Notes: generated from the sequence alone by a model not told the origin. A stretch of 58,664 nucleotides of DNA from an uncultured Candidatus Poseidoniales archaeon (GCA_902573085.1 CACGHY010000004.1:1-58664), one strand, 5' to 3'. Shown: positions 6,695 to 58,510, counted from the stretch's first letter. A program made the numbers and translations.

Positions 6695-8720
6695 CTATTC
6701 GATCCTCAGGGTACTTTCACATGCAGGGCAATCAATCCTCAGTGGCCGAATATCTGACTCGACAGGAACTTTCTTTCCACACGAAGGACATCTAACCATT
6801 CCGCCCTTATTCGAATTTCTCTGAACCCCAGAATCTTCAACAACCGGAGAAATTACTGAAGCAGGGAAAACAAGGAGTATGCTGGAACTAACTACCCCTA
6901 GAACTATTGGCATAGGTAAACCGAACCAGTAAATGGATAGCGATAGAACGCCCAAAACTCCAATCATAATCATACTTGGTGCTCTTGTCCTCCTCCTAGT
7001 CAGAGCCATACCAATTCCCAGTGCCAAGCAAAGAGCAAACACTGAAATCATTGCTGATATCAGTGGACTGAAGAGAAGGGCGTTTTCGGCCCCAAACTCC
7101 ATTCTGAAGTCTGTATCGGATTCGATATCGGAACTCTCCATAGTGATTATTTCCATCAATATCCACCTCCTATGGCTATAGTCTATCTCTTCATTGTCTA
7201 GGTATATCCCTCCAAAGCCAGAAAGCATTCCTGTTCTTATCTCAAATGAGAGTCCCACCTTATCCCAGAAATCATATCCCCCCGGCCTCACAAAATCCTC
7301 AATCAGTGCTTGTCTGGAGCCACTATCGGAGACATAGTATGTCGACGAAACTCTTAATGAAATAGAGTCTGAATTAAATGCTCTAGAAGCCCCTAGATCT
7401 ATGCTAATCTCAAGAGGGCCAAAGTCGACTGGATCCACTCCAAAAACAGCTTCTGGGTCAATCATCAAGCCACTGGAAAGGAATGATTTCAGATCGGACT
7501 TCGAACCTCTTAGATGGGTTTCTAGAGAAGACAGCTCTGAGTTATCCACTCTCCCGTTCTGCTTCTCCGAAGAGCTAACCTGATCTGAAAATGTGTTCAG
7601 ATTTCTCCACCAACTGTTTGATCCCAGGCTCTTATTCCCTATATTGTCTAGTCCCCACCTCATCCATTGAGACATAGCACCGTCGAACGATATGATCGTC
7701 TTTCTCTCGATCGAGTTGCCGTCATATTTGCAGTTGATTTCAACATCAAGTATCGAGCCTCCAGTCCGCGGAGGCTCTTCCTCTGGATACCAACTATTGT
7801 CTCCTGTGTCCTGGCCTAGCGTAATATCGTGAATTTTACTAGCTTCAATCACTAGTGACCCTTGAAGAGATATATGAAAATCCGTCCTAACCGAGCCCCC
7901 CCCCGCTCTCGCTGGGATCCCACACAAATGTGACATCCACCCAGTCTTCATTGGAGTTAACAATCGGACTTTCTGTGATCTCAACATTCTGAACCATTAG
8001 ACCACCAGATGAAGAGGTCCATATCCTGTCGCCGAAGCCAGAACTCAGTCTAACTGGAAAGAAAACAAGGCTTCCCTTAACACTAGCATCACGAATTTCG
8101 ACATTTATTAGCGGGAATGACATGGACATCGCAGCCGGATATTCTTCTGAGCCCCAGTAGAAGCTTATTCCAGACTCACTTCCCGGATTTGAAAAAATCA
8201 AACTTCTGACTGAAAATGTAATTTCGATTTTGTCATCTTTGGAGAATTGACCGTCTTGCACCTCTATCGGGATAGAAAGCTCACCCGAATCGCTGACATA
8301 AACTGCCGGGAGCTGTCCCGAGCTTTCGTAGGTATTTCCCCCGACCTTTACTACAACTGTTGCGTTCGCAGAAACCCCGGAAGAGTCCTTCACCTCATAT
8401 GGTATGGTGAAAGTCCATGTCCCCGAAGAATAACTGCCAGATTCCCCCCATATAATCGTCCAAGTACCGATTTCAACTTCCCCAAAAACTGATGAAGTCA
8501 CCTCCATGGACTTTTCCTCCTCTAATTCATTAGAGAATGGGGTCAGTTGCCCACTGTCTGCATCTCCAATCAAGAATAGATCAAATTCATCCGGAGATTC
8601 ACAGCAATCATTGTTCTCTTGGGCATTAGCCATCATGGGAGAAAAAACTACCATTATCATCATCAAGGAAAAAATGACTGCGAATCTTGAACTGGCGGCT
8701 TCCACGTTACTCTGATTCAC
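6695..8720 (-). CDS. Large exported membrane protein with C-terminal zinc ribbon, split by a frameshift at a G9 tract
   Basis: ORFs 7887-8861 and 6695-7987 join in frame (..PSESGGG/SVRTDF..) if one base of the run at 7896-7904 is removed; signal peptide, acidic beta-rich domain, three TM helices, CPSC...CPAC. Confidence 0.7.
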
Positions 8721-8787
8721 ACTGGCCCCTTCAATGCCACGTAAACTTTCAGTGAAAATATGCCGGTTTAAACGCAATTCAACTTTG

Positions 8788-10497
8788 CTAATTATGTAGC
8801 CATAGGAGCCTAGCAAACCCATCTTGAAAACCCTCGAATCTAGCAAAACCGACTCGCTCAAGTTGGTATATTTCTCCCTCTATTAGTTCAAAATTCTCTA
8901 CAACCCCCTTTACCTCATGAATCTCCTCACCTTTGGGTACTGCCAGTATCGCTTCTAGGGACAACCTCTCTGGAATCCAATGTACTATTTTTCGATCATC
9001 GCTCCTCTCAACCGACTCTATGGTCGCAGACGAACCTGAAATTATGATATCGGCGAAGTCTTTCAGTCTCAGCTTTCCTTCAACAAAATCACTATCCTGA
9101 ATTGATACAGTCGTCCCTACTTCCCACGCCCTGGAACCTTCAATTTCTCCATCCGGATGTCTTGCCATCATCACTCTTGAGGGGATATTTTCGGTACTAA
9201 GATCCAGATTTTTCGGATTTGACACGAACACCCTTCTTTCACAATTCCCGTCTATTATTCTAGAATTAAATGACTCCAATGTCTTCAGCGAGATTGAGAT
9301 ATCCTTCTGAGTAAGACCAACTTCTTCCCAAAGCTCTGCTAGAGAGCGAGGATCAAATCCGCGACGCCGCATTGCTCTGAGTGTAGGAAGCCTCGGATCG
9401 TCCCATCCCGAGAATTTACCCGAATCAATGGATGAAGACATCCCAGAGGTAGAGAAACCCCCAAACTCATGGATCTTCACCCTGCCCCAATACAATGGCT
9501 CAGGATATTCCCAACCGAAGTGTTCGTAAAGAATAGTCTGCTTCCTCGTGCTGTCCATCAAATCCTTTCCTCTGATGATGTGGCTTACTCCTTGCAGATG
9601 ATCCTCAATGGCGCTTTGGAAATCTAAGAGAGGCCAGACCTTGTACGTGTCGCCAACTATAGGATGCGGGGCATGCTGAATCCTTAGTGCGGGCCAGTCT
9701 CTCAAAGCGGGATTCGGCAGATCCATTTCGGTCTTTACCCTAACAACAGCTCTCCCCTCATCAATCTCTCCAGAGTTCATTTTGCTCCAATCGTCCATGT
9801 TCTGCTGGACCAACTTATCTCTACATGGACATTCAGTCTTTGAAACTCTGTACTCACGAAAATCCTCAGCAGTACATTCGCAAACATAGCCAAAACCCCC
9901 AATCAACATCTTCTCAGCGTGTTGGAGATATATTGGCATCCGTTCGCTAGCTCTAATCACAACATCTGCAGCCTTTCCTGTCATCCATTCGAACTCTTCT
10001 TCTATCCAAGCATAGGCATCAATAATTGGAGGTTTTACCTTAGTATCGGTATCGTCAAACCTGAGTACTATTTTGCCTTGGTATTTGTCTGCGTACAGGG
10101 AATTAATAGTCACTCCTCTTGAATGTCCTATGGTTAAAGGGCCATTGGGATTGGGAGCGAATCTCAGGATTACTTCTGATGTATTTCCTGGAAGATCCCT
10201 CAAACCCTCATTTTTCTTATGCCTCTCCCTATCTAGGGCCTCTGGAGCCAAACTCTCCAACTCTTTACGAACCCCTTCGATTCCATCTTCACGAGCTATA
10301 GAATTAGCCCTTGTGACCTCTTTCTCTACAAACGGTAGCAGGCTCTTGACACGGGTTCTCAGTTGTTCTCTCTCTGCAAGAACTCTACCTAGAACGCTTC
10401 CAGACTGCCCTTTGCCGCTGTACTCTATAGCGTTCTGTAATGCATACTTGCGAACTGCTTCCCGATCTTCCAGACCGAAAACTTCCTCGTCAGTCAT
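8788..10497 (-). CDS. gltX: Glutamate--tRNA ligase (archaeal type)
   Basis: RFAPNPNGPLTIGH (HIGH), LRFDDTD, HIIRGKD, FSTS (KMSKS-like), GWDDPRLPT, QLERVGF. Confidence 0.97.
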   Translation of the reverse strand: MTDEEVFGLEDREAVRKYALQNAIEYSGKGQSGSVLGRVLAEREQLRTRVKSLLPFVEKEVTRANSIAREDGIEGVRKELESLAPEALDRERHKKNEGLRDLPGNTSEVILRFAPNPNGPLTIGHSRGVTINSLYADKYQGKIVLRFDDTDTKVKPPIIDAYAWIEEEFEWMTGKAADVVIRASERMPIYLQHAEKMLIGGFGYVCECTAEDFREYRVSKTECPCRDKLVQQNMDDWSKMNSGEIDEGRAVVRVKTEMDLPNPALRDWPALRIQHAPHPIVGDTYKVWPLLDFQSAIEDHLQGVSHIIRGKDLMDSTRKQTILYEHFGWEYPEPLYWGRVKIHEFGGFSTSGMSSSIDSGKFSGWDDPRLPTLRAMRRRGFDPRSLAELWEEVGLTQKDISISLKTLESFNSRIIDGNCERRVFVSNPKNLDLSTENIPSRVMMARHPDGEIEGSRAWEVGTTVSIQDSDFVEGKLRLKDFADIIISGSSATIESVERSDDRKIVHWIPERLSLEAILAVPKGEEIHEVKGVVENFELIEGEIYQLERVGFARFEGFQDGFARLLWLHN

Positions 10498-11370: not shown

Positions 11371-11568
11371 ATGGGACCCGTATGGCCCTTCAAGAAGAAG
11401 AAACCCTCGAAATCGAAAGTATCTCGTACGAATTACATGAGGAATTTGGTTGAGTATGAGAAAAAATCAGGAAAGAAAGAGGAAAAAAAGGATGACAAAA
11501 GCCATCTGAAGAATAAGCAGTTCTTGAACGCGATGAAACTTCTCTCTGAAGAGGAAGATGAGAACTAG
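11371..11568 (+). CDS. Small basic hypothetical protein
   Basis: 65-aa ORF filling the rnhB-pheT gap; WPF followed by a Lys-rich body. Confidence 0.5.
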   Translation: MGPVWPFKKKKPSKSKVSRTNYMRNLVEYEKKSGKKEEKKDDKSHLKNKQFLNAMKLLSEEEDEN

Positions 11569-13319
11569 GATATCGGATCAGGGACTAACCTGTATATTGC
11601 CTCTAAGTCGATCTCTCCTGCTTGAATTGGAGATTTAATTCCGAAAAAGCCGCTAACTTTCGGATCAATCTCTCCGAACTCCCCAATCTTCTCTTCTTGA
11701 ATAAAAACATGGCTCCCCCTTCCACTTATCCAAGGTCCATCCTCAGCATCTGTAGGCCTGAATTCAACATCATCTTTAATCGCCCCCATATCTCGAAGAA
11801 GGGCTTGGACAATGCCCTTTGAAGAAGTAAATCCACTGCCTACTTCTGCACACGCCCACGCCGCTCGTTGGAAGTTCTTTGAATCTCGGATGACATCTCC
11901 TAGTTCGTAAATCCTCTGTGGGAGCTCATGATGGCGATTGGCTGCAAGCAGTCTTAGTAGCGAAGGCAGGATGTATTGTCTTAGAAGAGTGTGATCTGAT
12001 GTTATTGGATTTGCTATCTCTGTAACATATCCTTCATTTGGCCATCTAACATTTTCGAACTGATCTCTTTCGTTTGAAAGGGTCAGGCTCTGCACTTCTT
12101 GGAGGCCGCACGCCCTCATGCTTTCACCAACCCTCCTCTTCAGGTTAGAGCTCTTCAATGGGAGTGCATCAAGATGTGTTGTAGAAAGCTTCAGCGGAAG
12201 ATTCTGGAAACCGAAACCGATTGCGATATCTTCCACAATATCAACTGGGTGCATGATGTCGCTCCTCCATCGAGGCATTTTGATTAGATGCTCGACCTCT
12301 CCAACCACACAGTCGGACCACCTCCCACTCTGGTTAGGGCCATCTGTAACTGTACGGCTCTCTTCCAATGAACCGCCCATTTTTTTGATTGAAGATGACA
12401 ATTCTTCTGAGCTCAATTTTATTCCCAGAATTTTCTCAATTAGGCCGTCTGGAACCCGATGAGTTATGGCTTCTCCTTTTGGAGTAAAATGCTGCTCTCC
12501 GTCAGTGTCATTTAGTTGGATACTCTCAATTTCTCCTCCTCTCTCGGACATAGATAGACAGACGAGTAGTAGCGATGCTTCACACGCTCTTCTGTCCCAA
12601 CCCGTTACATCGATGAAAAAGTCAGTAGTTTCTTCGCTTACTGTGGTGTGACTTCCATTGATTATTGGGGGGAATGATAGCACCTTGTCATCAGAGTCCA
12701 GAATTACTGGAAACTCCTTCAGATCTTGCATGAGATGGGCATATTCTATTCCCTTGGGATGATCTGTAAGTATTTTCTCAATGCTCATCTCCTCCATACT
12801 AGCTAGAGGGGTGAAGGAAAATTCTGAGGATACAGTCGTTACTCGAAACGGAGGTCTGAGTGTATTGAGATCATGGACTCCGATCGAGGCGAATCTTCGC
12901 TTTCTCCCAAGCGTCATATGCAACTTTTCTTGATGATCCATCAGGCTCTGGATGAAATCTCCCCTTTCGTCAGAATCAGCACCCGTATCTACGGCTCTAA
13001 CAACTGCACCCATTACAATAGGCCTCACACTTGTTAGTTGAGGCTCTACTGTTAGAGAAATTTCACCCGTTGTTACAGCCATGTCCGCAGCTTCCTCGCT
13101 CAGATTAAGGAATGATCTACACGCCCTACTCATAGTCTCATGACTTAGTAAGTCTGGACGATCTGGAAACACCTCCACTTCTACCGACTGTTCTTCATTT
13201 TTATCAACAGGGCAACCAATATCGGGGAGCCAATAAGACCATTCTTCCCATCTGTGATCAATTCCATTGATCTTCTGAACAAATTCAAGAATAGAGTGTT
13301 TGAAGTCCAAGGTAGGCAT
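11565..13319 (-). CDS. pheT: Phenylalanine--tRNA ligase beta subunit
   Basis: PDRPDLLS, QEKLH..GRKR, SFPPIING, RSDIMHPVDIVEDIAIG, NPIT, IYELG. Confidence 0.96.
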   Translation of the reverse strand: MPTLDFKHSILEFVQKINGIDHRWEEWSYWLPDIGCPVDKNEEQSVEVEVFPDRPDLLSHETMSRACRSFLNLSEEAADMAVTTGEISLTVEPQLTSVRPIVMGAVVRAVDTGADSDERGDFIQSLMDHQEKLHMTLGRKRRFASIGVHDLNTLRPPFRVTTVSSEFSFTPLASMEEMSIEKILTDHPKGIEYAHLMQDLKEFPVILDSDDKVLSFPPIINGSHTTVSEETTDFFIDVTGWDRRACEASLLLVCLSMSERGGEIESIQLNDTDGEQHFTPKGEAITHRVPDGLIEKILGIKLSSEELSSSIKKMGGSLEESRTVTDGPNQSGRWSDCVVGEVEHLIKMPRWRSDIMHPVDIVEDIAIGFGFQNLPLKLSTTHLDALPLKSSNLKRRVGESMRACGLQEVQSLTLSNERDQFENVRWPNEGYVTEIANPITSDHTLLRQYILPSLLRLLAANRHHELPQRIYELGDVIRDSKNFQRAAWACAEVGSGFTSSKGIVQALLRDMGAIKDDVEFRPTDAEDGPWISGRGSHVFIQEEKIGEFGEIDPKVSGFFGIKSPIQAGEIDLEAIYRLVPDPIS

Positions 13320-45420: not shown

Positions 45421-45497
45421 GGGCCTGTAGCTTAGTCAGGTAGAGCGCCGGGCTTTTAACCCGGTGGCCGGGGGTTCGAATCCCCTCAGGCCCGCCA
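45421..45497 (+). tRNA. tRNA-Lys (anticodon UUU), CCA encoded
   Basis: Acceptor GGGCCTG/CAGGCCC, anticodon arm CCGGG-CTTTTAA-CCCGG, T-loop GGTTCGAATCC, 3' GCCA. Confidence 0.97.
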
Positions 45498-45543: not shown

Positions 45544-46131
45544 ATGGCAGTAAAGAGCTCAACAAAAAAGAGACTGATAGAGCTAGGGATCCCAGAGGAT
45601 CACGCACACAGGTTGGCGGACGACGCTAATCTGGACACAATCAAGAGGATGTCTAGAGAACAGGTTGCAAAAAAAGTCGGCCTTGAGGATGGGGTTTCGG
45701 AACTAGAACACATCATGGGTGTGATCAGTGAACATGTAGGCTCTCGGAAGAGGAGTAAGAGTAACAGAATCACGATTTCACGGAAAGCACTCTTGGACGA
45801 GGATATCCCTACTGGGGACTACAGGTTCAATGTGCTTAACCATGTACTTGTGCCACACCATGAATTAGTCCCTATCGAAGATGAGGCAGAGGTTCTTAAG
45901 CCCTGGGGGCTCATAACTGATGATGCTTTTGGGAAGGACAGGCTAGCCAAGGAACTGCTTCCGAAAATACTGATTACCGATCCTGCTATCCAAGTTATCA
46001 AGGAAATCGAAGAATCCGAGAATGATGAGCTTCCAGCAGGGTGGCTAGCAAACAGAGTTGTCAAAATTGTTCGATACAGCAGGTCTGCAGGACAATCAGT
46101 GGCATTCAGGCTAATAGTGGAGAGCGCATAA
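45544..46131 (+). CDS. rpoH: RNA polymerase subunit Rpo5 (H) with long N-terminal extension
   Basis: FNVLNHVLVPHHEL, LPKILITDPAI, VVKIVRYSRSAG..VAFRLIV; first gene of the RNAP operon. Confidence 0.93.
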   Translation: MAVKSSTKKRLIELGIPEDHAHRLADDANLDTIKRMSREQVAKKVGLEDGVSELEHIMGVISEHVGSRKRSKSNRITISRKALLDEDIPTGDYRFNVLNHVLVPHHELVPIEDEAEVLKPWGLITDDAFGKDRLAKELLPKILITDPAIQVIKEIEESENDELPAGWLANRVVKIVRYSRSAGQSVAFRLIVESA

Positions 46132-46143
46132 GGAGGAATTAAA

Positions 46144-49100
46144 ATGAGAGAGATTGTAGAGAGTTATTTCAAGCATAGAAGCCTAGTGAATCACCAACTT
46201 GCTTCGTACAACGACTGCATCCCCATCGGAGACGGTAGGGAAAGTAGGATGGAGAATATCGTGAGGAACATTAGGATTGGTAGTGACGAACCAGTAGAAG
46301 ATGATGAGGGTGGAATGGTCAAACTCGATCTTCTTGACAAAGAAATCATCGTTCGACTTAAGAATCTCAGGCTAGGTAGGCCCACAATAAAGGAAGCCAA
46401 TGGAGCAGAACATCACGCAACTCCAATGGAATGCAGACTAAGGAAGCTTACTTATTTCTCACCAGTCTATCTAGACTTCAAGATTTTTCGTGACGATTTG
46501 CCCCCAACCCCCGGTTCTGAGATGGGATTCCAGGAGGAAACTAGCGTCCATATCGGAAATTTGCCGATAATGGTTAGATCTGCCAGGTGTAATCTTAATC
46601 CTAACCATGCAGATGAAAATCGGCGACTCTCCCCGGAAACCTCCACTGAGGATTCGGCTAGATATACCCACCTTCTTAGGAAGTACGGCGAAGATCCTAT
46701 TGATCCCGGGGGGTACTTCATTATCAACGGGACCGAGAGAGTTCTAATTTCTATGGAAGACCTCGCGCCAAACAGGGTAACAGTAGAGAAAAACAAGAAG
46801 TATGCCCATGAGACCCAGGTCGCGAAAATATTCTCCCAAAAAGACGGCGTAAGGAAGCCACTGAACGTCGAAAAGAGAAGAGATGGGATGCTCATGGTCA
46901 AAATTCCCAGTGCGGGAACTAGTCCTATTCCTTTGGTGCTTCTGATGAGGGCACTCGGAGTATCCAAGGATATGGACATCTTCGCCTCAATTGCAGGCCC
47001 CCCGGAGGCGATGAAGTACACTGTGGCCAACCTCAACGATCTCAGGGATAATGAGGAGTATGGTGTAGAAACATCTGAGGAGGCCCTAGCTTGGCTGGAG
47101 AAGAAGTTCGCGGCGGGACAGCAGAAGGAGTACAGAGAATCGAGAATACAAAACTTACTTGATAACGAACTACTACCTCACTTAGGATCTAAATACGACA
47201 ACAGGGAGAAGAAAGCGATTTTCCTAGGCCGTATTGCTAGACAAGTTCTAGAGATGGCTATCATGGACAAGGATCCTAATGACAAGGATCACTATGCAAA
47301 CAAGCGTGTACGTCTGGCTGGCGATCTGGTGGAGGATCTTTTTAGGGTAAGCTTACAACAACTAGCTCGAGACTTGAAGTACCAATTGGAGAGACATCAC
47401 AACAGAAAAAGGGAACTGAGAATTTCCTCTTGCCTTCGTCCTGACGTCCTTACAACCAAGATTATGCATGCTCTTGCGACAGGCAACTGGGTCGGAGGTA
47501 GGTCGGGAGTAAGCCAGCTCCTTGATAGGACAACATATTTGTCCGCACTGTCTCACATGAGGAGGGTCACGAGCCCACTTGTTCGAAGTCAGCCCCACTT
47601 CGAGGCAAGAGATTTGCACCCTACACAGTGGGGTAGGTTGTGTCCAAACGAGACTCCTGAGGGACAAAATTGCGGCCTTGTAAAGAATGCAGCACAAATG
47701 ATTGACGTCTCAGAGGAAGTTCCCGAAGAGGATGTCAAGGCACTGTTGAAAGAAGCAGGGGTTGACGATAATCCTGAGGGCTGGGCAGACGGCTCGAGGA
47801 TACATGTTAACGGGGATATCTTCGGCCTTCACAAGAGACCACACAAGCTGGTCAGTCAATTCAAGAGGAGACGCAGATCAGGTAGGATTAGGCCAGAAGT
47901 TAGCATAAGGCATGACAATGAAAATCGTGACGTTTACATAAACACCGACAGGGGGAGGATGTTACGCCCACTACTAATAATCGATCATGGTAGCCTCCAA
48001 ATTACCAAGATGCACTTGGAGGCATTAAACTCGGGGGAGATCACATTCGCAGATCTTGTGTCTGGAGGTGTTGTAGAATGGGTAGATGCCGAAGAAGAGG
48101 AAGATCTCTTGATAGCCCCGAGACCTTTCGATTTGCCCGCAGTCTCCCCGAAGAACAAACGCCCCATTAATCCAGCAAAGGTGGAGTGGACCAACCTTGG
48201 GGAGCATGGAATATCCCATGCCGAGCTATCTGCAGAAGTAACTATGCCCAACGGCGAGTCAAAAACAGAGAAATTCAAGGTCCCTCTAAATTACTACCAA
48301 GATAACATGGACGCTCTCAAGAGGAAAGAGAAAAAGGACCACACAGTTTTGGTATACACTCACGTAGAGATCGACCCTCAACTCATTATGGGGGTTTGTG
48401 CCTCCCTAGTCCCATATCCTGAACACAACTCAACTCCGAGGGTTACAGGTGGGACAGCCATGGTAAAACAGAGCCTGGGAGTGGCCAGTGCAAATTTCAG
48501 ACTTAGGCCCGACACCCGTGCGCACGTAATGCACTACCCCCAAAGATCAATTGTAGGGACGCGGGCTATGGAGTCCACTAAATTCGATGAAAGACCCGGG
48601 GGTCAGAACTTTGTCGTCGCAATAGTAAGCCATCATGGTTACAACATGCAAGACGCCGTGATTATGAACAAAGCTTCTGTTGAGAGGGCTCTTGGTAGAT
48701 CTGCGTTCATAAGGACATACAACGCAGAGAACAAGAGATTCCCCGGCGGACAAGAGGAGAGAATCGAGGTTCCAGGGACGGGTCTCGATGAAATCAAGGG
48801 ACTAAAGTCATGGGATTCCTATTCTCATCTTGAAAGAGACGGATTACCTGTTCCAGAAATTGAGCTAACTAGCCAAGAAGGCGGCAGGTCTATCCTAGTA
48901 GGTAAAACCAGCCCACCCAGGTTCCTGGAAGAATCACATGGGGCATTCTTACAGGCTCAGGAACGGAGGGAGTCCTCCATGCTAGTTCGTCACGGTGAGA
49001 AAGGTTGGGTAGACAATATCTTCGTCACTGAGTCACTCGATTCAGGCAGGCTAGTCCGAATAACTCTGAGGACAAACAAGGTTCCAGAACTTGGAGACAA

Positions 49101-49836
49101 GTTCGCCAGTAGACACGGGCAAAAGGGAATAATTGGTAGACTGGTAAATGAGGAGGACATGCCATTCACAGAAGACGGCGTGATACCTGATTTACTCATC
49201 AACCCTCATGCTATCCCGTCCAGAATGACCGTAGCCCACGTTTTGGAGATGATCGGAGGAAAGGTGGGGTCCATGGAGGGAAGAAGAATAGATGGAACCG
49301 CGTTCACTGGAGAAAAGGAAGAGTCCCTAAGGTCGGGACTGCTCAGAAACGGTCTGAGGCACACCGGCAGGGAGCCGATGATCAATGGAGAAACAGGAGA
49401 GAGTTTCCCAGTCGATACATTCGTCGGTGTCATCTATTACCAGCGACTTCACCATCTGGTTAGCAGCAAACTCCACGCCAGAAGCAGAGGAAGAGTGCAA
49501 ATCCTCACTAGGCAACCAACGGAAGGTAGAGCAAGGCAGGGCGGCCTCAGATTCGGAGAGATGGAGCGAGACTGCCTAATTTCCCACGGAGCTTCCATGG
49601 TAATCAAAGACCGTCTTCTTGATGAGTCAGATGGCTGGAACCTAATGGTCTGCAACACTCCTAGATGCGGCCATATCGCATATTATGACTGGAAGAGAAG
49701 GACTACGATTTGTCCTGTTTGCGGGGATAGGTCAGACGTACATAGTGTCCAGACCTCCTATGCATTCAAACTTCTCCTCGACGAAATGAAGAGTCTTGGA
49801 GTAGCAATGAGACTAGAACTGGAGGATAGAAGATGA
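46144..49836 (+). CDS. rpoB: RNA polymerase subunit Rpo2 (B, unsplit)
   Basis: DPGGYFIINGTERV, CPNETPEGQNCGLVKN, GYNMQDA, GDKFASRHGQKG, RQPTEGRARQGGLRFGEMERD. Confidence 0.98.
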   Translation: MREIVESYFKHRSLVNHQLASYNDCIPIGDGRESRMENIVRNIRIGSDEPVEDDEGGMVKLDLLDKEIIVRLKNLRLGRPTIKEANGAEHHATPMECRLRKLTYFSPVYLDFKIFRDDLPPTPGSEMGFQEETSVHIGNLPIMVRSARCNLNPNHADENRRLSPETSTEDSARYTHLLRKYGEDPIDPGGYFIINGTERVLISMEDLAPNRVTVEKNKKYAHETQVAKIFSQKDGVRKPLNVEKRRDGMLMVKIPSAGTSPIPLVLLMRALGVSKDMDIFASIAGPPEAMKYTVANLNDLRDNEEYGVETSEEALAWLEKKFAAGQQKEYRESRIQNLLDNELLPHLGSKYDNREKKAIFLGRIARQVLEMAIMDKDPNDKDHYANKRVRLAGDLVEDLFRVSLQQLARDLKYQLERHHNRKRELRISSCLRPDVLTTKIMHALATGNWVGGRSGVSQLLDRTTYLSALSHMRRVTSPLVRSQPHFEARDLHPTQWGRLCPNETPEGQNCGLVKNAAQMIDVSEEVPEEDVKALLKEAGVDDNPEGWADGSRIHVNGDIFGLHKRPHKLVSQFKRRRRSGRIRPEVSIRHDNENRDVYINTDRGRMLRPLLIIDHGSLQITKMHLEALNSGEITFADLVSGGVVEWVDAEEEEDLLIAPRPFDLPAVSPKNKRPINPAKVEWTNLGEHGISHAELSAEVTMPNGESKTEKFKVPLNYYQDNMDALKRKEKKDHTVLVYTHVEIDPQLIMGVCASLVPYPEHNSTPRVTGGTAMVKQSLGVASANFRLRPDTRAHVMHYPQRSIVGTRAMESTKFDERPGGQNFVVAIVSHHGYNMQDAVIMNKASVERALGRSAFIRTYNAENKRFPGGQEERIEVPGTGLDEIKGLKSWDSYSHLERDGLPVPEIELTSQEGGRSILVGKTSPPRFLEESHGAFLQAQERRESSMLVRHGEKGWVDNIFVTESLDSGRLVRITLRTNKVPELGDKFASRHGQKGIIGRLVNEEDMPFTEDGVIPDLLINPHAIPSRMTVAHVLEMIGGKVGSMEGRRIDGTAFTGEKEESLRSGLLRNGLRHTGREPMINGETGESFPVDTFVGVIYYQRLHHLVSSKLHARSRGRVQILTRQPTEGRARQGGLRFGEMERDCLISHGASMVIKDRLLDESDGWNLMVCNTPRCGHIAYYDWKRRTTICPVCGDRSDVHSVQTSYAFKLLLDEMKSLGVAMRLELEDRR

Positions 49837-52800
49837 GCGCTCGAGATGCAGCAAAGATACCAAAGAGGATAGACTCGATTAGATTCACACTGATGGATCC
49901 AAATGAGATTAGGAAAATGTCATCTGTTGAAGTGAAAACAGCTGACACCTACAAGGACGATGGTCATGCCTTCAAACAAGGGCTTATGGACCCGAAGATG
50001 GGAGTAATTGATCCCGGCATTAGGTGTGAAACCTGCGGGAACAAACACGAAGAGTGCCCAAGCCACTTCGGTCACATAGCTCTTGAATTGCCTGTAATGC
50101 ACATAGGATTCACTGGGTTGATCAAGACGTGCCTTAAGACAACCTGCAACTCATGCAGCAAGGCTTTGCTGCACGATGCTCCCCAAACGCACCCTATTGA
50201 TCCAGAGAAGTCCGAGCAGGATTACTACAGAGACAGGGTGAACGACATCATTCTAAAGCATGGAGTTGGTGGAAGGGAATTTAAGAAAATAATCAAGGAT
50301 ATTGAGAATATTTGCGCTGGCCCGAAGCGTGCAATATGCATGCATTGTGGTGCAGAGCAGGGCAAGATAATTCTGGATAAGCCCACGACTTTCAAAGAAA
50401 AGAAGGCAGATAAGGGTGAGCACAAACTAAACGCTCGGGACATCCGCGAATGGCTCGAAAAGATACCCGATGAGCACCTAATTTTCCTCGGGATGGAGAG
50501 AGACGTTAGTAGGCCAGAATGGACAATCATGAAGGTACTTCCAGTCCCCCCGATTACAGTAAGGCCATCTATTACACTGGAAAGTGGAGATAGATCAGAG
50601 GATGACCTCACGCACAAGTTAGTCGACGTTCTAAGGATTAACCAGAGGCTGCGGGAAAACCGCGATTCGGGAGCTCCGCAACTAATCGTTGAAGATCTCT
50701 GGGAACTGTTACAATATCATTGCACGACATATTTCGATAATCAGACCAGTGGCATTCCGCCAGCTCGACACAGATCTGGAAGGCCACTGAAGACCCTATC
50801 TCAGAGACTAAAGGGGAAGGAGGGTCGCTTCAGGAGCAATTTGTCCGGTAAGAGAGTTAACTTCTGTGCTAGAACAGTTATCAGCCCGGACCCAAATCTT
50901 GGAATCAATGAAGTGGGAGTCCCTGTGAAGACGGCCAAAGAACTTACAGTACCTATCAGAGCTACAAGTAGAAACAGGGAGCAACTCAGACAGATGATCC
51001 TAAGGGGCCCGGATGTTCATCCCGGGGTTAACTACATTATCAGAGGAGATAGGTTTAGGGTTAGGATTACAGATAGAACGAAGTATATCTGGGCAGGATT
51101 TAGGTGCCTGAATCCAGATTGTCATTGTGGTAGTGAAGAGGAGCCCTACATGGGTTATAGGCCTGATTTGAATGAGGTCCTTCCAGCTCCAAACTTCCTT
51201 CCAGGACTTGTTTTGAAGGAGCAAATGAGAAGGGACCCAATGACCGACGAGCTTCTCCCAGAGTGGAGCGTAGATTTGGATAAGACCCTATCAAACTTAA
51301 GGGGAGAGGGAGGAGATGGAAAACCCCTGGCCGAAAACAATCCAGATGCGGCAATACATCACCGCTGGAAGTGGGAAGTAGAAAATCCGGACGAGTACCT
51401 CCCCGATTATCTCGAGGTCAAGTGCCCACACTGCGGAAGCCCAGATATCGAGGACGAACACGGAAACCTCTACCCTACAGAAGTAGAGGACCGACTGAGC
51501 ACATACGATAGAGACGGCAACCCAAAGCCAGGGGTTGTTGTAGAGAGGCACCTTATTGACGGTGATGTAACTATTTTCAATCGACAACCATCACTCCACA
51601 GGATGTCGATGCTAGTTCACGAAATAAGAGTCATGGATGGCAAGACATTCAGGTTCAACCTTGCTGACTGCACTCCCTACAATGCAGACTTTGACGGAGA
51701 CGAAATGAACCTACACGTTATTCAGAGTGAGGAAGCCAGAGCCGAGGCCAGAATACTCATGAGGGTCCAGGAGCACATCATATCTCCCAGATATGGGGGC
51801 AGCGTCATTGGTGGGATACATGATCACATCACAGGTGCTTACCTTCTGACGCACGGCGAGGCCTTCCTTCCAATGCCAGTCGCAATGGATGTCCTCAGCT
51901 CTATTGGATGGGAAGGCGAAATACCTCCATCAGTAGAGAGAGATGGACAGGTCGGATTGTTGGGCAACGATGTGTTCAGCCTTCTTGTGAAGGGGGGCTT
52001 CACTCTGAACTTCAAAAATCGAGCGGGAGAAGAAGTTCAGGTATCCCAAGGAGATGTCTCTGGTTCTATCGACAAAAGAGGAATTGGAGCGGAAGATGGT
52101 CGACTTCTAGATGCCGTAGTACAGACCCATGGAACTGATAGGGGGGCTGACTTCATCAATAAGATGACAAAGATGACAATAGCCATCTGTACAGCAATGG
52201 GATTCACCACCGGAATTGATGATGAAGACCTACCTCCCGAGGCTAAGGAAGAGATCGTTAGAATCAACTCTGAGGCTAGTGCTAGTGTTGACTCCGAACT
52301 GGAAAAGTTCGGGAAGGACGGAAGGAAGTATGAGGCTAGACCAGGCAGAACACCGCATGAAACTCTCGAGGAGAACATATTGACAATCTTAGACGCTGCG
52401 AAGGCGGAAACTGGAAACGTCGCTAAGGCACAACTCGGGGATGACAATTCAGCCGTCCTCATGGCGACCTCTGGAGCAAGGGGTTCAATGGACAATCTAG
52501 CAATGATGGCCGGATCCATCGGCCAGCCTAAAGTCAGAGGTAAGCGCCTTGAGAGGGGCTATCAAGACAGAGTCCTTTCTCACTTCCCTAGGAAGGTTAA
52601 GGGATCAAAAGAGAAGGGTTTCGTGTCTTCTTCTTTCAAGCGAGGCCTCGAACCAACAGAATTCTTCATGCTTTCTGTTTCTGGTAGAGAATCACTGGTC
52701 GATACCGCAGTCAGAACGAGTAAGTCAGGTTACATGCAGAGAAGGCTGATTAATGCCATGGACGATCTCAAGGTCTCCAATGATGCAAAGGCCTCCGTGA

Positions 52801-52928
52801 GAAACACCGCGAACCGCATTATCCAGTTCGAGTATGGAGAGGATGGGACCGATCCCGCTAGAAGCAGAAAGGGAAGTCCATTCGATGTCGATCAGGTCCT
52901 CAACGATGCCCTAGGGGGTGCTAACTGA
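49833..52928 (+). CDS. rpoA1: RNA polymerase subunit Rpo1N (A')
   Basis: CETC...[59 protein letters not shown]. Confidence 0.98.
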
Positions 52929-54508
52929 TGGTAGTTAAGAGTGCAACAAAAAAGAAGTTAATGGATCTTGGAATAGAAGAAGAGTATGCTCACAAGTTAG
53001 CGGATGATCGAAAATGGGATGATGTCAAGGGACTCTCTCCTGGCCAAATCGCCCAGATATGCGGAATCGACTCTGGAACCTCTCAGAGGATCCATGATGT
53101 TATGGCCAGCTCAGTAAAGTCAAGCAGAGCCTCTGCAGCGAGTACCGAGAAGACCATTGTTCGCAGAAGAACAGTCTCAAGAGCTAGAAGGACAAAGCGG
53201 TCACTACCCCTGCAGGACTACGACTATGGGACCAAAATGAAGCAACTCTTCCGTGATGTTGATAGCGATGACGAGTTGTTTATCCAACTGGACAAGGCTG
53301 CTAAGGAAAACGACTCAAACCTGACTCCAAGGATGTTAGACCAACTCGTCCAGGGTTTGCATAGCAGGGGCGAGAAGAAGGTCACACCAGCCAAGGCCAA
53401 GAAAATAATTGAATCTGCAACCAACTTCTACAATGACGCAAAAGCGGTTCCTCATGAGGCAGTAGGAATTACAACCGCCCAGTCCATTGGCGAACCCGGT
53501 ACACAGATGACGATGCGGACATTCCACTATGCAGGTGTGGCTACAGTCAACGTTACCCAAGGTCTACCAAGGATAATCGAGATTGTCGATGCCAGGAAGG
53601 TGCCTCAAACGCCAACCATGATAATTTACATGGACGAGAAAAACTCCAAGGGAAAACCACTGAGGACAAACGAAAAACTAGTACGAGACTTAGCCGCTTC
53701 CATAGAGACAACCACCGCTATAGACATAGCAACTATAGACGTCGATGTAGCTCAGAGGAACATATTACTCCAGCTCAACAACAAAAACATGAAGCTGAAG
53801 AAAATGACGGGGGCTGAGGTAAGGGACAAGCTTTCACGTGCTCTGAGGCTCTACGTTCAAGCTGATGATGATGATCGTCCAAAGTCTCTTAGGATTATTC
53901 CTGGCATATCTAAAGAAGAAGATCTTGCGTCTCTTGCAGCCGACCCCCCTACTTACACCGCTCTTCTGCAACTCGAAGACAAAATCAAGAAATTACGATT
54001 GAAAGGCCTTCCAGGAATCAGCAGAGCAACGGTCCAAGGCCCGATGTCTGAAACAGGTGAATATTACATATCGACAATCGGCTCAAACCTCTCAAAGGTC
54101 AGTGAGTTCGACGGGGTTGACCGATCGAGGACGTACACGAACAATATCAATGAGATACATGACTACCTAGGTATAGAAGCAGCTAGACAAGCTATAATTA
54201 ACGAAATGTGGGATACTCTTGAGGGCGCGGGTCTTGATGTTGACGTCAGACATCTGATTATGGTCTCAGATGTGATGACTACTGGTGGAGAGGTTAGGGC
54301 GATCGGACGTCACGGTGTAAGCGGAACAAAGCACTCCATCCTTGCTCGTTCCGCTTTCGAGGTTACAGTTACCCATCTACTGAAGGCCGGAGTAATTGGC
54401 GAAAGAGACAATCTATCTGGAGTCACTGAGAACATCATCGTAGGTCAACCAGTTTCACTAGGAACGGGCAGTGTCGAACTATTCTACATACCCGAGGAAA
54501 ACAACTGA
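52928..54508 (+). CDS. rpoA2: RNA polymerase subunit Rpo1C (A'') with N-terminal extension
   Basis: [56 protein letters not shown]. Confidence 0.97.
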
Positions 54509-54871: not shown

Positions 54872-55822
54872 GTGCCTAGACCCATGGAGGTCTTATTTCG
54901 AGAGCTACTTAGTATAAGGTCAATTGACTTCGACTCATCAAATATAGAGATCCCTCAGTCTCCATTCAAACCAATCGGTCAAGCAAAAGCTGTCCCCGAC
55001 TTCGGTATTGTTTCTGGAAAGACCTTCATCTGGCATGCTCCTCCTGAAATTCTACCAATTACCAGAAGCGAACTAGACAGATTCGAGATGGATGCCCCCG
55101 ATGGTTTTCACCTAATCCTTAGTGAGCGACCAACTCATTCTGATTGTGATCCGATTGATAGAACAAAATTTCAGATTGTCACCCCAAAACAGATTTCACA
55201 GTGGATAGGAAGCGCAATACTTTCCGGGGAGCTTCGTGCCTCGGCTGTTCCGAAAGACTCGGATGATGCAGAATCTAGTGTTTACCCGACTTATTCCAAT
55301 GAAGGAGAGATTAATGTTCTAAGTTCGAAGATTGACATAAACACTTGGAGCGCTAGCAGGGGCATTGAGGGTTTCTCATCATCACCAATGTTACTAGAGG
55401 CTCGATTATGGAGGGTATCAGGCGATCTGCACGGACCTAGTGGCAGTAGTGAAAAGGGTGAATGGACAATACTTGAGGACCCCTGGTCCCAGAGGCTCAG
55501 TGTCATTTTGGAGTCAGAAACTATGCTTAAATCCCCGCAAATCAGGTCAATAGCTCCTCCAAATGAGAATTGGCTCAGCGAAGACAGCCTTAAAATCAAA
55601 ATCTCCAAGATAGTTGAGGAGAGGAGAAGGGGAGACTCTGGTGAGATGAGCCTCTCTGGCACTGTTAGGAGCATGCTACTAGAAAAGTGGGTTTTGGATG
55701 TACAAATGGCATTGATCGAGCATTACAGAATATTCATCCCCGGCTGGTTGATAAATCTCGAATCAGACAAAATCCTGCATGGAAGAAACGGCCGTTTGTA
55801 TGATTCAGTTTCTCTGAAGTAA
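54872..55822 (+). CDS. Hypothetical protein
   Basis: 316-aa open frame filling the gap; no motif recognised. Confidence 0.6.
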   Translation: MPRPMEVLFRELLSIRSIDFDSSNIEIPQSPFKPIGQAKAVPDFGIVSGKTFIWHAPPEILPITRSELDRFEMDAPDGFHLILSERPTHSDCDPIDRTKFQIVTPKQISQWIGSAILSGELRASAVPKDSDDAESSVYPTYSNEGEINVLSSKIDINTWSASRGIEGFSSSPMLLEARLWRVSGDLHGPSGSSEKGEWTILEDPWSQRLSVILESETMLKSPQIRSIAPPNENWLSEDSLKIKISKIVEERRRGDSGEMSLSGTVRSMLLEKWVLDVQMALIEHYRIFIPGWLINLESDKILHGRNGRLYDSVSLK

Positions 55823-56701
55823 CATCATGTCCTCATCAGAGAGCGTGTCGCCACTCATTAGTCTGGACATTAAGTCGGAAACCTCCACTCTCTCCTCTTC
55901 GTGGTCTTTCTTGGAACCAGATAGCTTCAAAATGTCCTGCATAGAATGTATGCACCTTAGGGAAATGATATATTTGTTATGTAACTCATCAGCATCAGAC
56001 TTGGTTGAAGTTAGGCCCAAGTGTTCAGAATTTGCCATTCCTCTCAGCCTGTCAACCTCATTTGATAATTCCATCATTAGTGAATGGGCTTCTTCGGATT
56101 TCTCTGATGCATCAGTGACTGCATCATGAGCTTTTTGCTGCCTCTTTTCCGCCTGTCTAACTTCTTTCAAAACACTTGAGCTACTAGTTTCTTCTTCTTT
56201 TCTGAGCCTTTTGAAATCTGCCTGAAGCCTCTTCATCTTTGCAAAAAAGTCCTTCTCTTTACTCGGGCTAATTTGGCCAGTTGTATGTCGCCACTCAAGC
56301 TTGTTCATCTGTTCTCTAATACTCCGAGAACTCGGCCCACTCCTCTTCTTTCCCGACTCTCTACCGTTCTGCTCTACAGAACTCCTTAGTTTCGACCTAA
56401 TATCCTTCAACTCTTTAGTTCTCTCGAGTCTTATTTTCCTCAATTCAGCAACCTTGCTGTTAGCCTCATTTCTTAGGCTCTTCTGCTTTTGAACTTCGGT
56501 GATTAATTGCTTTACCTGGAGGTTAATTTCGTTCCTTTTGTCCAACTGACTTCTTACTTTGACGTTCAACTCATCACGACGATCTTTGTATTCAGCAAGC
56601 TTCTTACTGACCAGTTTCGAATTCTGTTCAAAAACAGATGAGATATTCGACTGATTCAGTTCCAAAGTTAACCCTCTGGCACATCGAATTTGGAGTTCCA
56701 T
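55805..56701 (-). CDS. Archaeal coiled-coil protein (COG1340-like)
   Basis: RDELN...KRNEIN...RNEAN heptad repeats, LEWRHTT, ADELH, C-terminal GDTLSDEDMMLLQ. Confidence 0.75.
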   Translation of the reverse strand: MELQIRCARGLTLELNQSNISSVFEQNSKLVSKKLAEYKDRRDELNVKVRSQLDKRNEINLQVKQLITEVQKQKSLRNEANSKVAELRKIRLERTKELKDIRSKLRSSVEQNGRESGKKRSGPSSRSIREQMNKLEWRHTTGQISPSKEKDFFAKMKRLQADFKRLRKEEETSSSSVLKEVRQAEKRQQKAHDAVTDASEKSEEAHSLMMELSNEVDRLRGMANSEHLGLTSTKSDADELHNKYIISLRCIHSMQDILKLSGSKKDHEEERVEVSDLMSRLMSGDTLSDEDMMLLQRN

Positions 56702-56726
56702 TTAAGCCATACCGAGTATTTACCTT

Positions 56727-57686
56727 CTAGTCCCTACGACTCGCAAGCTTTCCTTTCCTTCCTCCTCTCCTAGAAATACCAAGTTTTCTAGCCTTCTTTT
56801 TTGGTATCTGGTTCTGTTTTGTTGCCTTTTTTAGTGGAGCTTTGGAGTCGTTGATCGACGAAAAGCCGCCAGTCTCTAGTATCAGCCCTAACTCTGCAGA
56901 GCTGAGAGAACCACCCGTTGCGGCAATTCCGCGAATATCATCTATGCTGTAGGAACCCCTTAAGTCAGATACTCTCGAGTATTTCTGGAGTTTTTTTAGA
57001 AGATTTCTTTCGCTATTTGATTCTATTTTGAGGGCCTCAATTCTCTTATCAATGGACGAAATACTATTACTCAGCTTACGTATGTCTTTCCTGCTGATCT
57101 TGTCCCCTTCAATTTCACTACTTTCCATTAGCTCAGTTTTCACCTTACCAATTTCTTCTTTGTTTTGATCTAGTTTGTTTGAGATGATCCTCATCTCACT
57201 TAATTTGGCAATATATCTTGAATGAGCCTTCTCCGCCTCCTTCTTCTTCTTGATCGAAGCCTGGATCTCGAAGAATCTGCTAAATGCCGATAGTTCCGGA
57301 TTTAGCATTGGTACTGTGGTCAGGTCATTGTCTATTCGCGTTAATGTGAGGTAGGTCTCACCAAGCCACTCCTCCAGAATTTTAGAAGGAGGAGGTACTC
57401 TTTTGTTAATTTCATCCCTTTTATCTCTTTGAATCTTGGCTTGTTTCCTTAGAGAATGAAACTCCCCCAGCAGCTTCTTTCGGCCAGTCCCTGAGCGTTC
57501 TATTCCAAAAACTGCAGATCTTAGCGCCTTTACAATCTGTACTTGCTCTTTCCTTTCCGCTTGTAGATCTTTTTTCTCTGAATCCAATGACCTCAATATT
57601 CTCTTCTTTTCAGAGACCATCGCCTTCATTTCATCTTTAGATAAGTCCTTGAAATTGGGTTGGAAATCCTTTGGGGGATCATTCAT
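56727..57686 (-). CDS. Coiled-coil protein (COG1340-like paralog)
   Basis: KRDEIN, AEKAH, GGSLSSAEL motif, basic C-terminal tail. Confidence 0.65.
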   Translation of the reverse strand: MNDPPKDFQPNFKDLSKDEMKAMVSEKKRILRSLDSEKKDLQAERKEQVQIVKALRSAVFGIERSGTGRKKLLGEFHSLRKQAKIQRDKRDEINKRVPPPSKILEEWLGETYLTLTRIDNDLTTVPMLNPELSAFSRFFEIQASIKKKKEAEKAHSRYIAKLSEMRIISNKLDQNKEEIGKVKTELMESSEIEGDKISRKDIRKLSNSISSIDKRIEALKIESNSERNLLKKLQKYSRVSDLRGSYSIDDIRGIAATGGSLSSAELGLILETGGFSSINDSKAPLKKATKQNQIPKKKARKLGISRRGGRKGKLASRRD

Positions 57687-58510
57687 TCCTCTTCACCTCT
57701 AGCATTCTTATCTTTCAATTTTCTAGAACTTTTGGCAAAAGATGAATTGCCCCCCTCATCAACGTTTTTTTGCCCGCTGAGGAGATCTCTAAAACCAACT
57801 CCCAAATCTCCAAATCCATTTTCTATCCTCTTCTCCCAATAGCTAATCGCTTTATCGCTCTGTGCAAGCAACTCCCTCGCTCGATCCAATTGGCTCCTAA
57901 TTTCTTTAATCTCTTCTGAGGCAATGGTCAACTTCTCATAGATCGGTTGTGCCTTTGAAACTGCTTCTATCATCGAAGAATGTAACTTATCCGCTTTCTT
58001 GAAAAGTTTAGACATCTCCTTACTCTTTTGCAGATAATCTGTCATTTCCGGGTTAGAAGCCTTCCTATCCCTAATCCATTTGTCATTCTCGGAAATTAAA
58101 GCTCTTCTCTTTTCTATTAGTTTCCTTTCGGACACGTGGTCCAACGCTGATGTCTGGATGTTTATCTCAATCTCTTCTAATTGCTCCAGTAATTTCATTT
58201 TCTTCCATTTAGGGTCAAGATTGATCATTCCTCCGGATTCATCTAGCTTTGTCCTAATACGTTTCACTTCCGGGATTAAGGATCGGGCTCTGGTCTGAAA
58301 TTGGTCTCTCTCGGCTTTTAATTTGGCAACCTTGTCATTGGCTTCATCGAAGGATTTCTTCAACCTATCTAACTTTGGAGATATACTATCTTCTTCCGCC
58401 TCAAGATTCCTAATTACTCCCGGTAGGCTATCCTTGAGCAGTATTCTCCTTTTTAGTAGAGCAGATGAAAGCTCATCCGGAGTCACATTCATCAGTTCAT
58501 TGGTGTCCAT
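57683..58510 (-). CDS. Coiled-coil protein (COG1340-like paralog)
   Basis: ANDKVAKLKAERD, IQTSALD...ERKLIE, ADKLH. Confidence 0.7.
   Translation of the reverse strand: MDTNELMNVTPDELSSALLKRRILLKDSLPGVIRNLEAEEDSISPKLDRLKKSFDEANDKVAKLKAERDQFQTRARSLIPEVKRIRTKLDESGGMINLDPKWKKMKLLEQLEEIEINIQTSALDHVSERKLIEKRRALISENDKWIRDRKASNPEMTDYLQKSKEMSKLFKKADKLHSSMIEAVSKAQPIYEKLTIASEEIKEIRSQLDRARELLAQSDKAISYWEKRIENGFGDLGVGFRDLLSGQKNVDEGGNSSFAKSSRKLKDKNARGEEE

Follow-up and report, generated by a model that had tools for sequence, protein, structure and literature searches.

Homologous N-terminal modules on the RNA polymerase subunits Rpo5 and Rpo1C of Poseidoniales archaea

What does it mean when two different subunits of one RNA polymerase begin with the same additional domain? 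This question is raised by a 58,664-nucleotide stretch of DNA from an uncultured Candidatus Poseidoniales archaeon (GCA_902573085.1, CACGHY010000004.1:1-58664; hereafter the window), which carries the genes rpo5 (rpoH; 45544-46131, 195 amino acids (aa)) and rpo1C (52928-54508, 526 aa), both on the plus strand. The genome is a Marine Group IIb bin (Poseidoniales, Thalassarchaeaceae) of 1.16 Mb and 62.6% completeness. An initial inspection of the DNA alone (the sequence-only reading) had pointed out that 18 of 27 residues are identical at the two N-termini, and both the quoted N-termini and the count are exact. Here we show that Rpo5 and Rpo1C each open with a homologous module of about 65 residues, which is followed by a flexible, strongly basic linker and then by the conserved core.

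The likeness runs on well beyond the first 27 residues. In a single pairwise BLASTP comparison, Rpo5 aa 1-74 and Rpo1C aa 1-72 align with 31/74 identical and 50/74 positive positions (E 1e-14), and the comparison of the whole proteins gave no second significant segment. By sequence, this likeness is far above chance. The Pfam cores start only at aa 95 in Rpo5 and aa 135 in Rpo1C; therefore, the shared N-terminal parts are additions. The identity of the cores is clear for Rpo1C, which exceeds the cut-off of the equivalog model TIGR02389 (423.9 bits against 420.65, aa 137-519) and matches Pfam Rpb1_5 over aa 135-470 (160.3 bits, E 8e-47). The core of Rpo5 matches Rpb5_C (PF01191) with 51.2 bits against a cut-off of 23.5 (aa 95-191), and scores 52.2 bits with the NCBIfam subunit H equivalog NF007129, under its cut-off of 83; it is divergent and carries an insertion, as 97 residues align to 73 positions of this profile. 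With a 94-aa addition at its N-terminus, the 195-aa Rpo5 departs from the archaeal norm of about 80 aa. The sequence-only reading was right about this norm: the NCBIfam RpoH model has 80 positions, and in a phylum sample of 301 genomes Rpb5_C matched 296, with all 150 listed matches outside Poseidoniales and 147 of them in open frames shorter than 160 aa. Passages of two papers likewise describe archaeal RpoH without an N-terminal extension (PMC3906176; PMC2675907).

Could the extensions be annotation artefacts, with the true starts downstream and the likeness coming from untranslated or regulatory sequence? The sequence-only reading had itself allowed for downstream starts, and in-frame Met codons are indeed present further down, for example Met12 of Rpo1C. 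However, over codons 1-45 the ratio of nonsynonymous to synonymous differences (pN/pS) is 0.25 for Rpo5 (46 distinct genes, 1035 pairs; pS 0.76, pN 0.19) and 0.19 for Rpo1C (6 genes, 15 pairs; pS 0.80, pN 0.16). Synonymous sites are near saturation in both sets; therefore, the protein was kept by purifying selection while the DNA drifted. Residues 1-11 of Rpo1C are invariant among 18 sequences. The TGA stop of rpo1N overlaps the ATG of rpo1C by one base (ctgATGg), and an rpo1C without the extension would leave about 400 nt of open but untranslated sequence inside the operon. Rpo5 matches 959 database proteins at E<=0.001, and the 120 listed are 71-95% identical, 182-222 aa long and cover 86-100% of the query. 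Near-identical Rpo5 proteins are labelled Thalassarchaeaceae, Candidatus Thermoplasmatota or Euryarchaeota archaeon in the databases. G-rich stretches lie 8-12 nt 5' of both starts, and the region is predicted with confidence to fold. Because of the purifying selection, the rpo1N/rpo1C overlap and the full-length Rpo5 relatives, both extended starts are, on sequence grounds, genuine and the extensions are translated; an artefact is hardly credible.

The two parts of each extension differ in charge. In the window, the modules have a net charge of -2 (Rpo5, aa 1-66) and -1 (Rpo1C, aa 1-62), and the homologue means are -1.7 (16 rows) and -1.9 (18 rows). The linkers that follow have a net charge of +4 (Rpo5, aa 67-94) and +10 (Rpo1C, aa 63-96), with homologue means of +4.6 (16 rows) and +6.4 (18 rows), and are basic in all homologues examined, as the earlier description of Arg/Lys-rich linkers had it. 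The Rpo5 linker is about 28 aa long; in Rpo1C, about 34 basic residues are followed by 40 acidic ones.

How does the module fold? An alignment of 16 module sequences (A1) was the basis of an AlphaFold2 (AF2) model and of the A1 profile. The model has five helices (residues 6-13, 18-25, 30-35, 38-45 and 52-65) with a mean predicted local distance difference test score (pLDDT) of 79.5, and in this prediction they form two helix-hairpin-helix (HhH) motifs and a connector helix, the (HhH)2 layout. The AF2 model of full-length Rpo5 reproduces the module (blocks of pLDDT 80-84; the helices score about 80-87 across the two models), followed by a stretch of low confidence (aa 67-109, pLDDT 34-47), and has a predicted template modelling score (pTM) of 0.32; from the low linker pLDDT and this pTM, the module is predicted to behave as a tethered unit. 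The HhH resemblance proposed by the sequence-only reading thus finds its counterpart in a five-helix model on a basic tether, short of the Pfam HhH thresholds.

Sequence comparison points to the same fold class, indirectly but more strongly, by way of relatives in other lineages. A1 aligns to a profile of the corresponding Rpo1C modules from other Thermoplasmatota (A8) over 59 columns (hhalign probability 93.9%, E 1.5e-7), and A8 in turn matches solved (HhH)2 repeats, most closely those of Topoisomerase V (E 3.3e-5), followed by NAD-dependent DNA ligase (6e-4), DisA, XPF and FAAP24. A structural search independent of Foldseek returned SAM domains (Scm, Z 7.5; Hyphen/Aveugle, Z 7.3; SAMD5, Z 7.1), (HhH)2 domains (FANCM/FAAP24, Z 7.4 and 6.0; XPF, Z 6.9; Topo V, Z 6.8; Hef, Z 5.8) and NusA (Z 6.7). 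These structural neighbours are consistent with a SAM-like/(HhH)2 fold class, although scores of this size do not establish kinship between small helical domains.

Several results weigh against this assignment. Foldseek, which had been suggested as a check, placed (HhH)2 and SAM-like rows on top (SARM1 SAM domains, FANCM/FAAP24, RAD51/RadA N-domains, UvrC, ERCC1/XPF), but against the PDB no match reached E<=0.001 and all E-values are at least 0.6. All structural Z-scores of the model are below 8, which for small helical domains may reflect just a common arrangement. The A1 profile alone found no solved relative in the PDB by sequence. Among the Pfam HhH families, the best score of the Rpo1C module is 13.3 bits with HHH_5, against a threshold of 27, and the Rpo5 module gave no match. 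Each hairpin has one glycine (LGI; VGL or CGI) and not the canonical G-h-G. No Pfam or NCBIfam model covers the Rpo5/Rpo1C module, and it has no sequence match to any Pfam SAM family. Compared with known (HhH)2 domains (Topo V, NAD-dependent ligase, XPF/ERCC1, FANCM/FAAP24, RuvA domain II), the Poseidoniales modules share, in the predicted model, the five helices and two HhH motifs and differ in their sub-threshold Pfam scores, in the single glycine and in being neutral to acidic. Taking profiles and model together, the module is best filed as a divergent (HhH)2-type domain, whose membership is partly established.

Where is the pair found, and how did it arise? With the Rpo5 module as query, the window's own genome holds exactly two copies, and 39 of 41 relatives' genomes match, usually in two frames, one of 183-252 aa and one of ~496-533 aa; the two genomes without a match are 82% and 84% complete. 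Across the class, the A1 profile matched 64/66 genomes of family f1 and 89/89 of f3 (f1, f2 and f3 being Poseidoniales families), 0/43 of the sister order (MGIII; f4) and 0/2 of f5. Both f1 genomes missed by A1 belong to genus g10. In this genus, six of 11 genomes (G174, G190, G553, G564, G636 and G651; 70-87% complete) are without any module match, and the g10 misses may mean either that the module was truly lost or that the polymerase operon was not assembled. In the phylum sample, the best A1 match outside Poseidoniales (E 5e-4) is the N-terminus of a 470-aa Rpo1C from another family, where Rpo5 is a plain 80-aa protein. Judged by these profile matches, the Rpo5 copy, and hence the pair, is found only in Poseidoniales, in all three sampled families. 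In genome G515, the third profile match is a further Rpo5, whose contig has the same gene order and probably stems from a second strain in the bin. The remaining weak matches of A1 in the phylum (to the RFC large subunit, serpin-like and primase-like proteins and others) were read and put down to chance.

Because the sister order and the other sampled families have a plain Rpo5 of about 80 aa, the Rpo5 module is, from its sequence distribution, most likely a copy gained by duplication or transfer in the Poseidoniales stem. A point against it comes from the module tree, in which the Rpo1C-type clade nests inside the Rpo5-type grade: with a root on a branch 2.4 long and three of 12 outgroup sequences included, the tree gives no direction of duplication.

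The Rpo1C module has a different history. Searched as a single sequence, the outside Rpo1C module matched frames of 468-884 aa in 37 genomes from outside Poseidoniales. The 12 genes of this set that were read all start with M(S/A)K..T.NAL(I/V)(K/R)RG... and continue with a Lys/Glu-rich linker, and six of them lie directly after rpo1N; Rpb1_5 is present in 7/7 tested non-Poseidoniales proteins that bear the module. The A8 profile matched 177/301 genomes of the phylum. Its coverage is high in f7 (36/37, many of them single-contig and 99% complete), MGIII (8/8), f6 (9/12) and f23 (5/5) and low in f19 (0/15), f10 (0/8), f22 (0/5) and f16 (3/38). This spread over families means that the Rpo1C module is old and widespread in the phylum. 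In MGIII, Rpo5 has 81 aa and no module and Rpo1C has 758 aa and the module. The older Rpo1C module agrees with the Poseidoniales form in position, length, helix pattern and basic linker, but only about 25% of the aligned residues are identical, and Rpo5 in those lineages is without it. These sequence comparisons show that the Poseidoniales Rpo1C module is a local form of an older Rpo1C module present in many Thermoplasmatota families. The sequence-only reading, which had asked for the distribution across Thermoplasmatota to be mapped, inferred a lineage-specific RNA polymerase; this holds for the Rpo5 copy and the pairing at the level of the order and fails for Rpo1C.

Two kinds of Rpo1C outside Poseidoniales have additional parts. 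In MGIII (L081:406-2679, L080:8328-9950), some 330 residues of unassigned nature lie between the module and the Rpb1_5 core. In G370, from another Thermoplasmatota family, a 606-aa Rpo1C (L070:431-2248) has the module, then an HHH_5 domain (76.9 bits against 27) and then the core, and related genomes have Rpo1C frames of 606-678 aa.

The best match of A8 in Poseidoniales is neither polymerase gene. It is a protein of ~363 aa (frames of 360-413 aa) present in 23/23 f1 and 47/47 f3 genomes, that is, in all 70 Poseidoniales genomes of the phylum sample; it was read at L079:271-1359 and is partial in the window's genome (G000:C37:3-677, minus strand), where the gene lies just downstream of a methyltransferase-like gene. 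It consists of a module of the older type, a basic stretch and a body without a Pfam or NCBIfam family, and its likeness to the MGIII Rpo1C is confined to the module (33% of 81 aa, E 2e-6). By sequence, the older module type is thus preserved in Poseidoniales on a separate protein.

The module also occurs outside the polymerase. A profile search of 1.84 billion representative proteins gave 206 matches at E<=0.001, and the 150 listed were classified by the sequence that follows the module: 10 are Rpo5, 21 are Rpo1C, 61 are too short to tell, and 58 (hereafter orphans) continue for at least 60 residues unlike either subunit. A small number of the 58 probably stem from broken Rpo1C genes in which BLAST does not pick up the variable linker; P0327 and P0349, which lie outside the 58, are certainly broken Rpo1C. 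Most orphans turn to unrelated sequence past residue 35-50, and their module is nearly always at the extreme N-terminus. They include a family of ~330 aa (P0212 and kin; 10 clusters, all full length, longest contigs 1.3-26 kb), proteins of ~210 aa with a GLGSLFG end (P0204, P0205, P0224), of ~340 aa (P0334, P0338) and of ~290 aa (P0251, P0256), zinc-ribbon proteins (P0177, P0197), an 851-aa ATPase with AAA_15/AAA_21 (ABC/OLD-like) that carries the module at aa 93-144 (P0206), and a family of 1200-1500 aa, with the module in 4 of its 20 clusters. P0198, P0207, P0208, P0217, P0221, P0233, P0312, P0351 and others also bear the module. The contigs of the orphans are at most 63 kb long. In the module tree, the Rpo1C-type clade (support 97/97) takes in 15 of 19 orphans, the other four group with the Rpo5-type modules, and the starred branches force at least four label changes. 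The module has therefore been acquired repeatedly, and from both genes.

What are these proteins? The orphans were not found in 401 Poseidoniales genomes; a profile containing the module matched 383 of these genomes, almost always twice and with the module part only. Scans of IMG/VR gave pattern matches for A1, A2 and A3, none of them confirmed, and no match for A4; tblastn of P0212, P0198, P0334 and P0205 against GenBank phage records gave no match; and the P0334 body and A4 found nothing in representative genomes. A metagenome scan with A4 found just two relatives, both module-less. In PHROGs, 18 of 20 orphans matched nothing, the ATPase part of P0206 gave a match and P0177 a single weak one (E 0.009); NCBIfam had nothing for 4/4 orphans, and protein atlas matches (scores <=0.90) are leads only.

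A few weak hints suggest that the orphans are of viral or mobile descent. One fragment with the module was found in a Tara sample whose label gives the fraction below 0.22 µm. Module-less relatives of the 1200-1500-aa family lie on three IMG/VR contigs of 43-118 kb, and on one of these the relative adjoins an SNF2 helicase gene, with a DenV-like glycosylase gene ~7 kb downstream. A module-less relative of the ~330-aa P0212 family lies at 8249-9055 on the 17.6-kb metagenome contig L058, together with genes for an N6/N4 DNA methylase, a primase-polymerase-like protein, a TFIIB/TFB homologue (11507-12475) and a Holliday-junction-resolvase-like nuclease; from its gene content, this contig looks like an archaeal virus or plasmid. 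It is conceivable, if rather improbable, that viruses or mobile elements captured the module repeatedly from the 5' ends of rpo5 and rpo1C, mimicking a docking tag of the polymerase to hijack or inhibit host transcription. The orphans would then bind what the polymerase modules bind: each other, the ~363-aa protein, or DNA at the jaw.

What might the pair do in the polymerase itself? We propose that the two tethered modules, with their basic linkers, act as arms that hold double-stranded DNA without sequence specificity at the downstream channel, a proposal which we consider about evenly balanced between right and wrong. Rpo5 and Rpo1C form the lower jaw region, and Rpo5 and the Rpo1C jaw flank the downstream-DNA entry channel; the two modules and linkers would grip double-stranded DNA on or ahead of the downstream DNA, with no sequence preference; this grip may stabilize the open and elongation complexes or help the enzyme to load on DNA. 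The arms would occupy the site that the Rpb5 jaw has in eukaryotes and Rpo13 in Sulfolobales, and their mode of action would resemble that of the tethered C-terminal domains of the bacterial alpha subunit (alpha-CTDs). We infer the DNA grip because of the (HhH)2 kinship to DNA enzymes, the basic linkers and the canonical HHH_5 domain of one relative, the G370 Rpo1C. Two points weigh against it. The folded modules are not basic and stand nearer to the protein-binding acidic repeats of NusA and to SAM domains than to a classic DNA binder; and the module is found on dozens of unrelated small proteins, so that a docking tag fits more easily than generic DNA binding. A complex prediction for Rpo5 aa 1-70 with Rpo1C aa 1-70 (with alignments, without controls) scored 0.00 against a mark of 0.32 and speaks neither for nor against.

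The module may instead be a docking or dimerizing unit for protein, joining Rpo5 to Rpo1C, to the ~363-aa protein or to another host factor, with the linkers alone touching nucleic acid; viral or mobile proteins with the same N-terminus would then dock at the same site. By analogy with its nearest folds, this is possible, though we hold it to be doubtful. Those folds include dimerizing SAM domains (Scm/Sfmbt), heterodimerizing (HhH)2 domains (FANCM/FAAP24, XPF/ERCC1) and the acidic repeats of NusA, and the slightly acidic charge of the modules is in keeping with such a role, as are the orphans, both in their number among the listed representatives (58/150) and in their spread over both module types of the tree, and the presence of a third module-bearing protein in every Poseidoniales genome sampled. 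However, the orphans are only putatively viral or mobile, and dimerizing (HhH)2 domains usually bind DNA too, as XPF/ERCC1-type pairs do, so that docking and DNA-holding arms are not exclusive. It is very unlikely that the arms use their Arg/Lys-rich linkers to bind RNA, be it nascent transcript or regulatory RNA. These linkers are strongly basic and predicted to be disordered, and A8 has a distant likeness to RNA polymerase subunit F (E 0.14) beside the structural likeness of the module to NusA, both being parts of the transcription apparatus; but the closest sequence relatives are DNA enzymes (Topo V, DNA ligase, XPF, DisA), and Rpo5 and the Rpo1C jaw are on the downstream-DNA side of the polymerase, opposite to the RNA exit channel.

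How do DNA-holding arms of this kind compare with known polymerases? The sequence-only reading had likened the pair to the bacterial alpha-CTDs and the eukaryotic Rpb5 jaw, and both comparisons stand as functional analogies only, as neither Pfam family matches by sequence. The alpha-CTD is a small HhH-containing domain on a flexible linker, present in two copies per enzyme, and belongs to the SAM-like fold class. It differs in being C-terminal, in sitting on two identical alpha subunits and in contacting upstream DNA and activators, whereas the Poseidoniales modules are N-terminal, on two different subunits and, as proposed, on the downstream side; Pfam RNA_pol_A_CTD gave no match to the Rpo5 or Rpo1C module, and an RNA_pol_A_CTD cluster in the protein atlas (score 0.79) is a lead only. 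Eukaryotic Rpb5 resembles the Poseidoniales Rpo5 in having an extra N-terminal domain ahead of Rpb5_C and, according to passages of two papers, in facing downstream DNA (PMC2675907, PMC1802627). The Rpb5 jaw has ~130 aa, and the Poseidoniales module has ~65 aa, is HhH-like, hangs on a disordered tether and has a second copy on Rpo1C. Pfam RNA_pol_Rpb5_N gave no match at E<=1 to the whole Rpo5 or to its aa 1-80, so the two domains are not homologous.

As described in part of the same source (PMC2675907), archaeal Rpo5 is without the ~130-residue jaw of Rpb5, which leaves a positively charged groove where Rpo13 docks, and the basic tail of Rpo13 reaches the DNA entry channel. Rpo13 of Sulfolobales and Desulfurococcales is also a lineage-specific, small helical element of DNA-binding type with a basic tail beside Rpo5 (PMC2675907). 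Compared by description, Rpo13 forms a subunit of its own, has a helix-turn-helix fold and carries its basic tail at the C-terminus; the Poseidoniales modules are fused to the N-termini of two existing subunits and are HhH-like.

The module is a lineage-specific accessory domain of RNA polymerase, a known kind of addition. The Rpb5 jaw is treated as a later eukaryotic addition; abundant ocean archaea built a two-domain Rpo5 independently, most likely by copying a module already present on their own largest subunit, and their polymerase offers a natural example of convergent elaboration at this jaw of the downstream DNA. The polymerase has two like arms per enzyme, a layout otherwise known from the bacterial alpha-CTDs. 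The survey also brings to light the Rpo1C N-terminal module across much of Thermoplasmatota, for which we found no earlier description in the literature. In a full-text literature search, with subscription journals and supplements outside its scope, no paper was found that describes Rpo5 or Rpo1C of Thermoplasmatota or Poseidoniales with an N-terminal domain; a 2026 paper on the evolution of small subunits (PMC13257274) covers Rpo6 and Rpo8 and mentions neither group, and the term RNA polymerase does not occur in a paper on Poseidoniales viruses (PMC11706807). The complete single-contig genomes of f7 may be those of cultured strains, and if this is true, the function of the module is open to biochemistry. 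If the orphans prove to be viral, the module would signal a new way for archaeal viruses to engage the polymerase of their host.

The genes are ordered tRNA-Lys / rpo5 / rpo2 / rpo1N / rpo1C, which is the 5' half of the archaeal RNA polymerase operon; the order rpoH-rpoB-rpoA'-rpoA'', with rpo5 first, is the same in the relatives' loci L032-L035. The coordinates are collected below.

Table 1. Features of the RNA polymerase operon in the window
Feature	Position	Strand	Basis and remarks
tRNA-Lys (UUU)	45421..45497	+	ARAGORN; 46 nt before the Rpo5 start; bounds the rpo5 leader upstream
Rpo5 N-terminal module (aa 1-66), predicted five-helix (HhH)2/SAM-like	45544..45741	+	BLASTP, AF2, pN/pS
Rpo5 basic linker (aa 67-94), predicted disordered	45742..45825	+	charge count, pLDDT
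Rpo5 core (Rpb5_C / RpoH assembly domain, aa 95-195) and stop codon	45826..46131	+	Pfam PF01191
rpo2 (RpoB), unsplit, 1230 aa	46144..49836	+	seven Rpb2 Pfam domains; between the two module-bearing genes
rpo1N (RpoA'), 1031 aa	49833..52928	+	Pfam Rpb1 domains 1-5
Rpo1C N-terminal module (aa 1-62), paralogue of the Rpo5 module	52928..53113	+	BLASTP, pN/pS
Rpo1C basic linker (aa 63-96)	53114..53215	+	charge count
Rpo1C variable acidic segment (aa 97-136, net -4)	53216..53335	+	charge count; ahead of the core
Rpo1C core (RpoA'', aa 137-526) and stop codon	53336..54508	+	TIGR02389, Pfam Rpb1_5

The other two large subunits of this operon also depart from their profiles. In Rpo1N, the Rpb1_2 domain is matched in two stretches, the best at aa 565-645, with a weak zinc-ribbon match at aa 528-543 just before it; the sequence suggests a lineage-specific insertion with CxxC motifs at about aa 420-560. 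In Rpo2, Rpb2_1 spans aa 14-434 for a profile of 203 positions and Rpb2_5 spans aa 635-745 for 66 positions; with such long spans for short profiles, large insertions in Rpo2 are therefore likely.

Downstream of rpo1C, a gene of 98 aa is followed by a 316-aa open reading frame (54872-55822, plus strand), and a relative has a 323-aa open reading frame in the same place (L034:10031-10999). On the minus strand, positions 55805-58510 of the window hold three tandem genes for coiled-coil, Lys/Glu-rich proteins of 298, 319 and 275 aa, of which the middle one is without a family, the third is about at the cut-off of Pfam DUF7121 and the first exceeds it.

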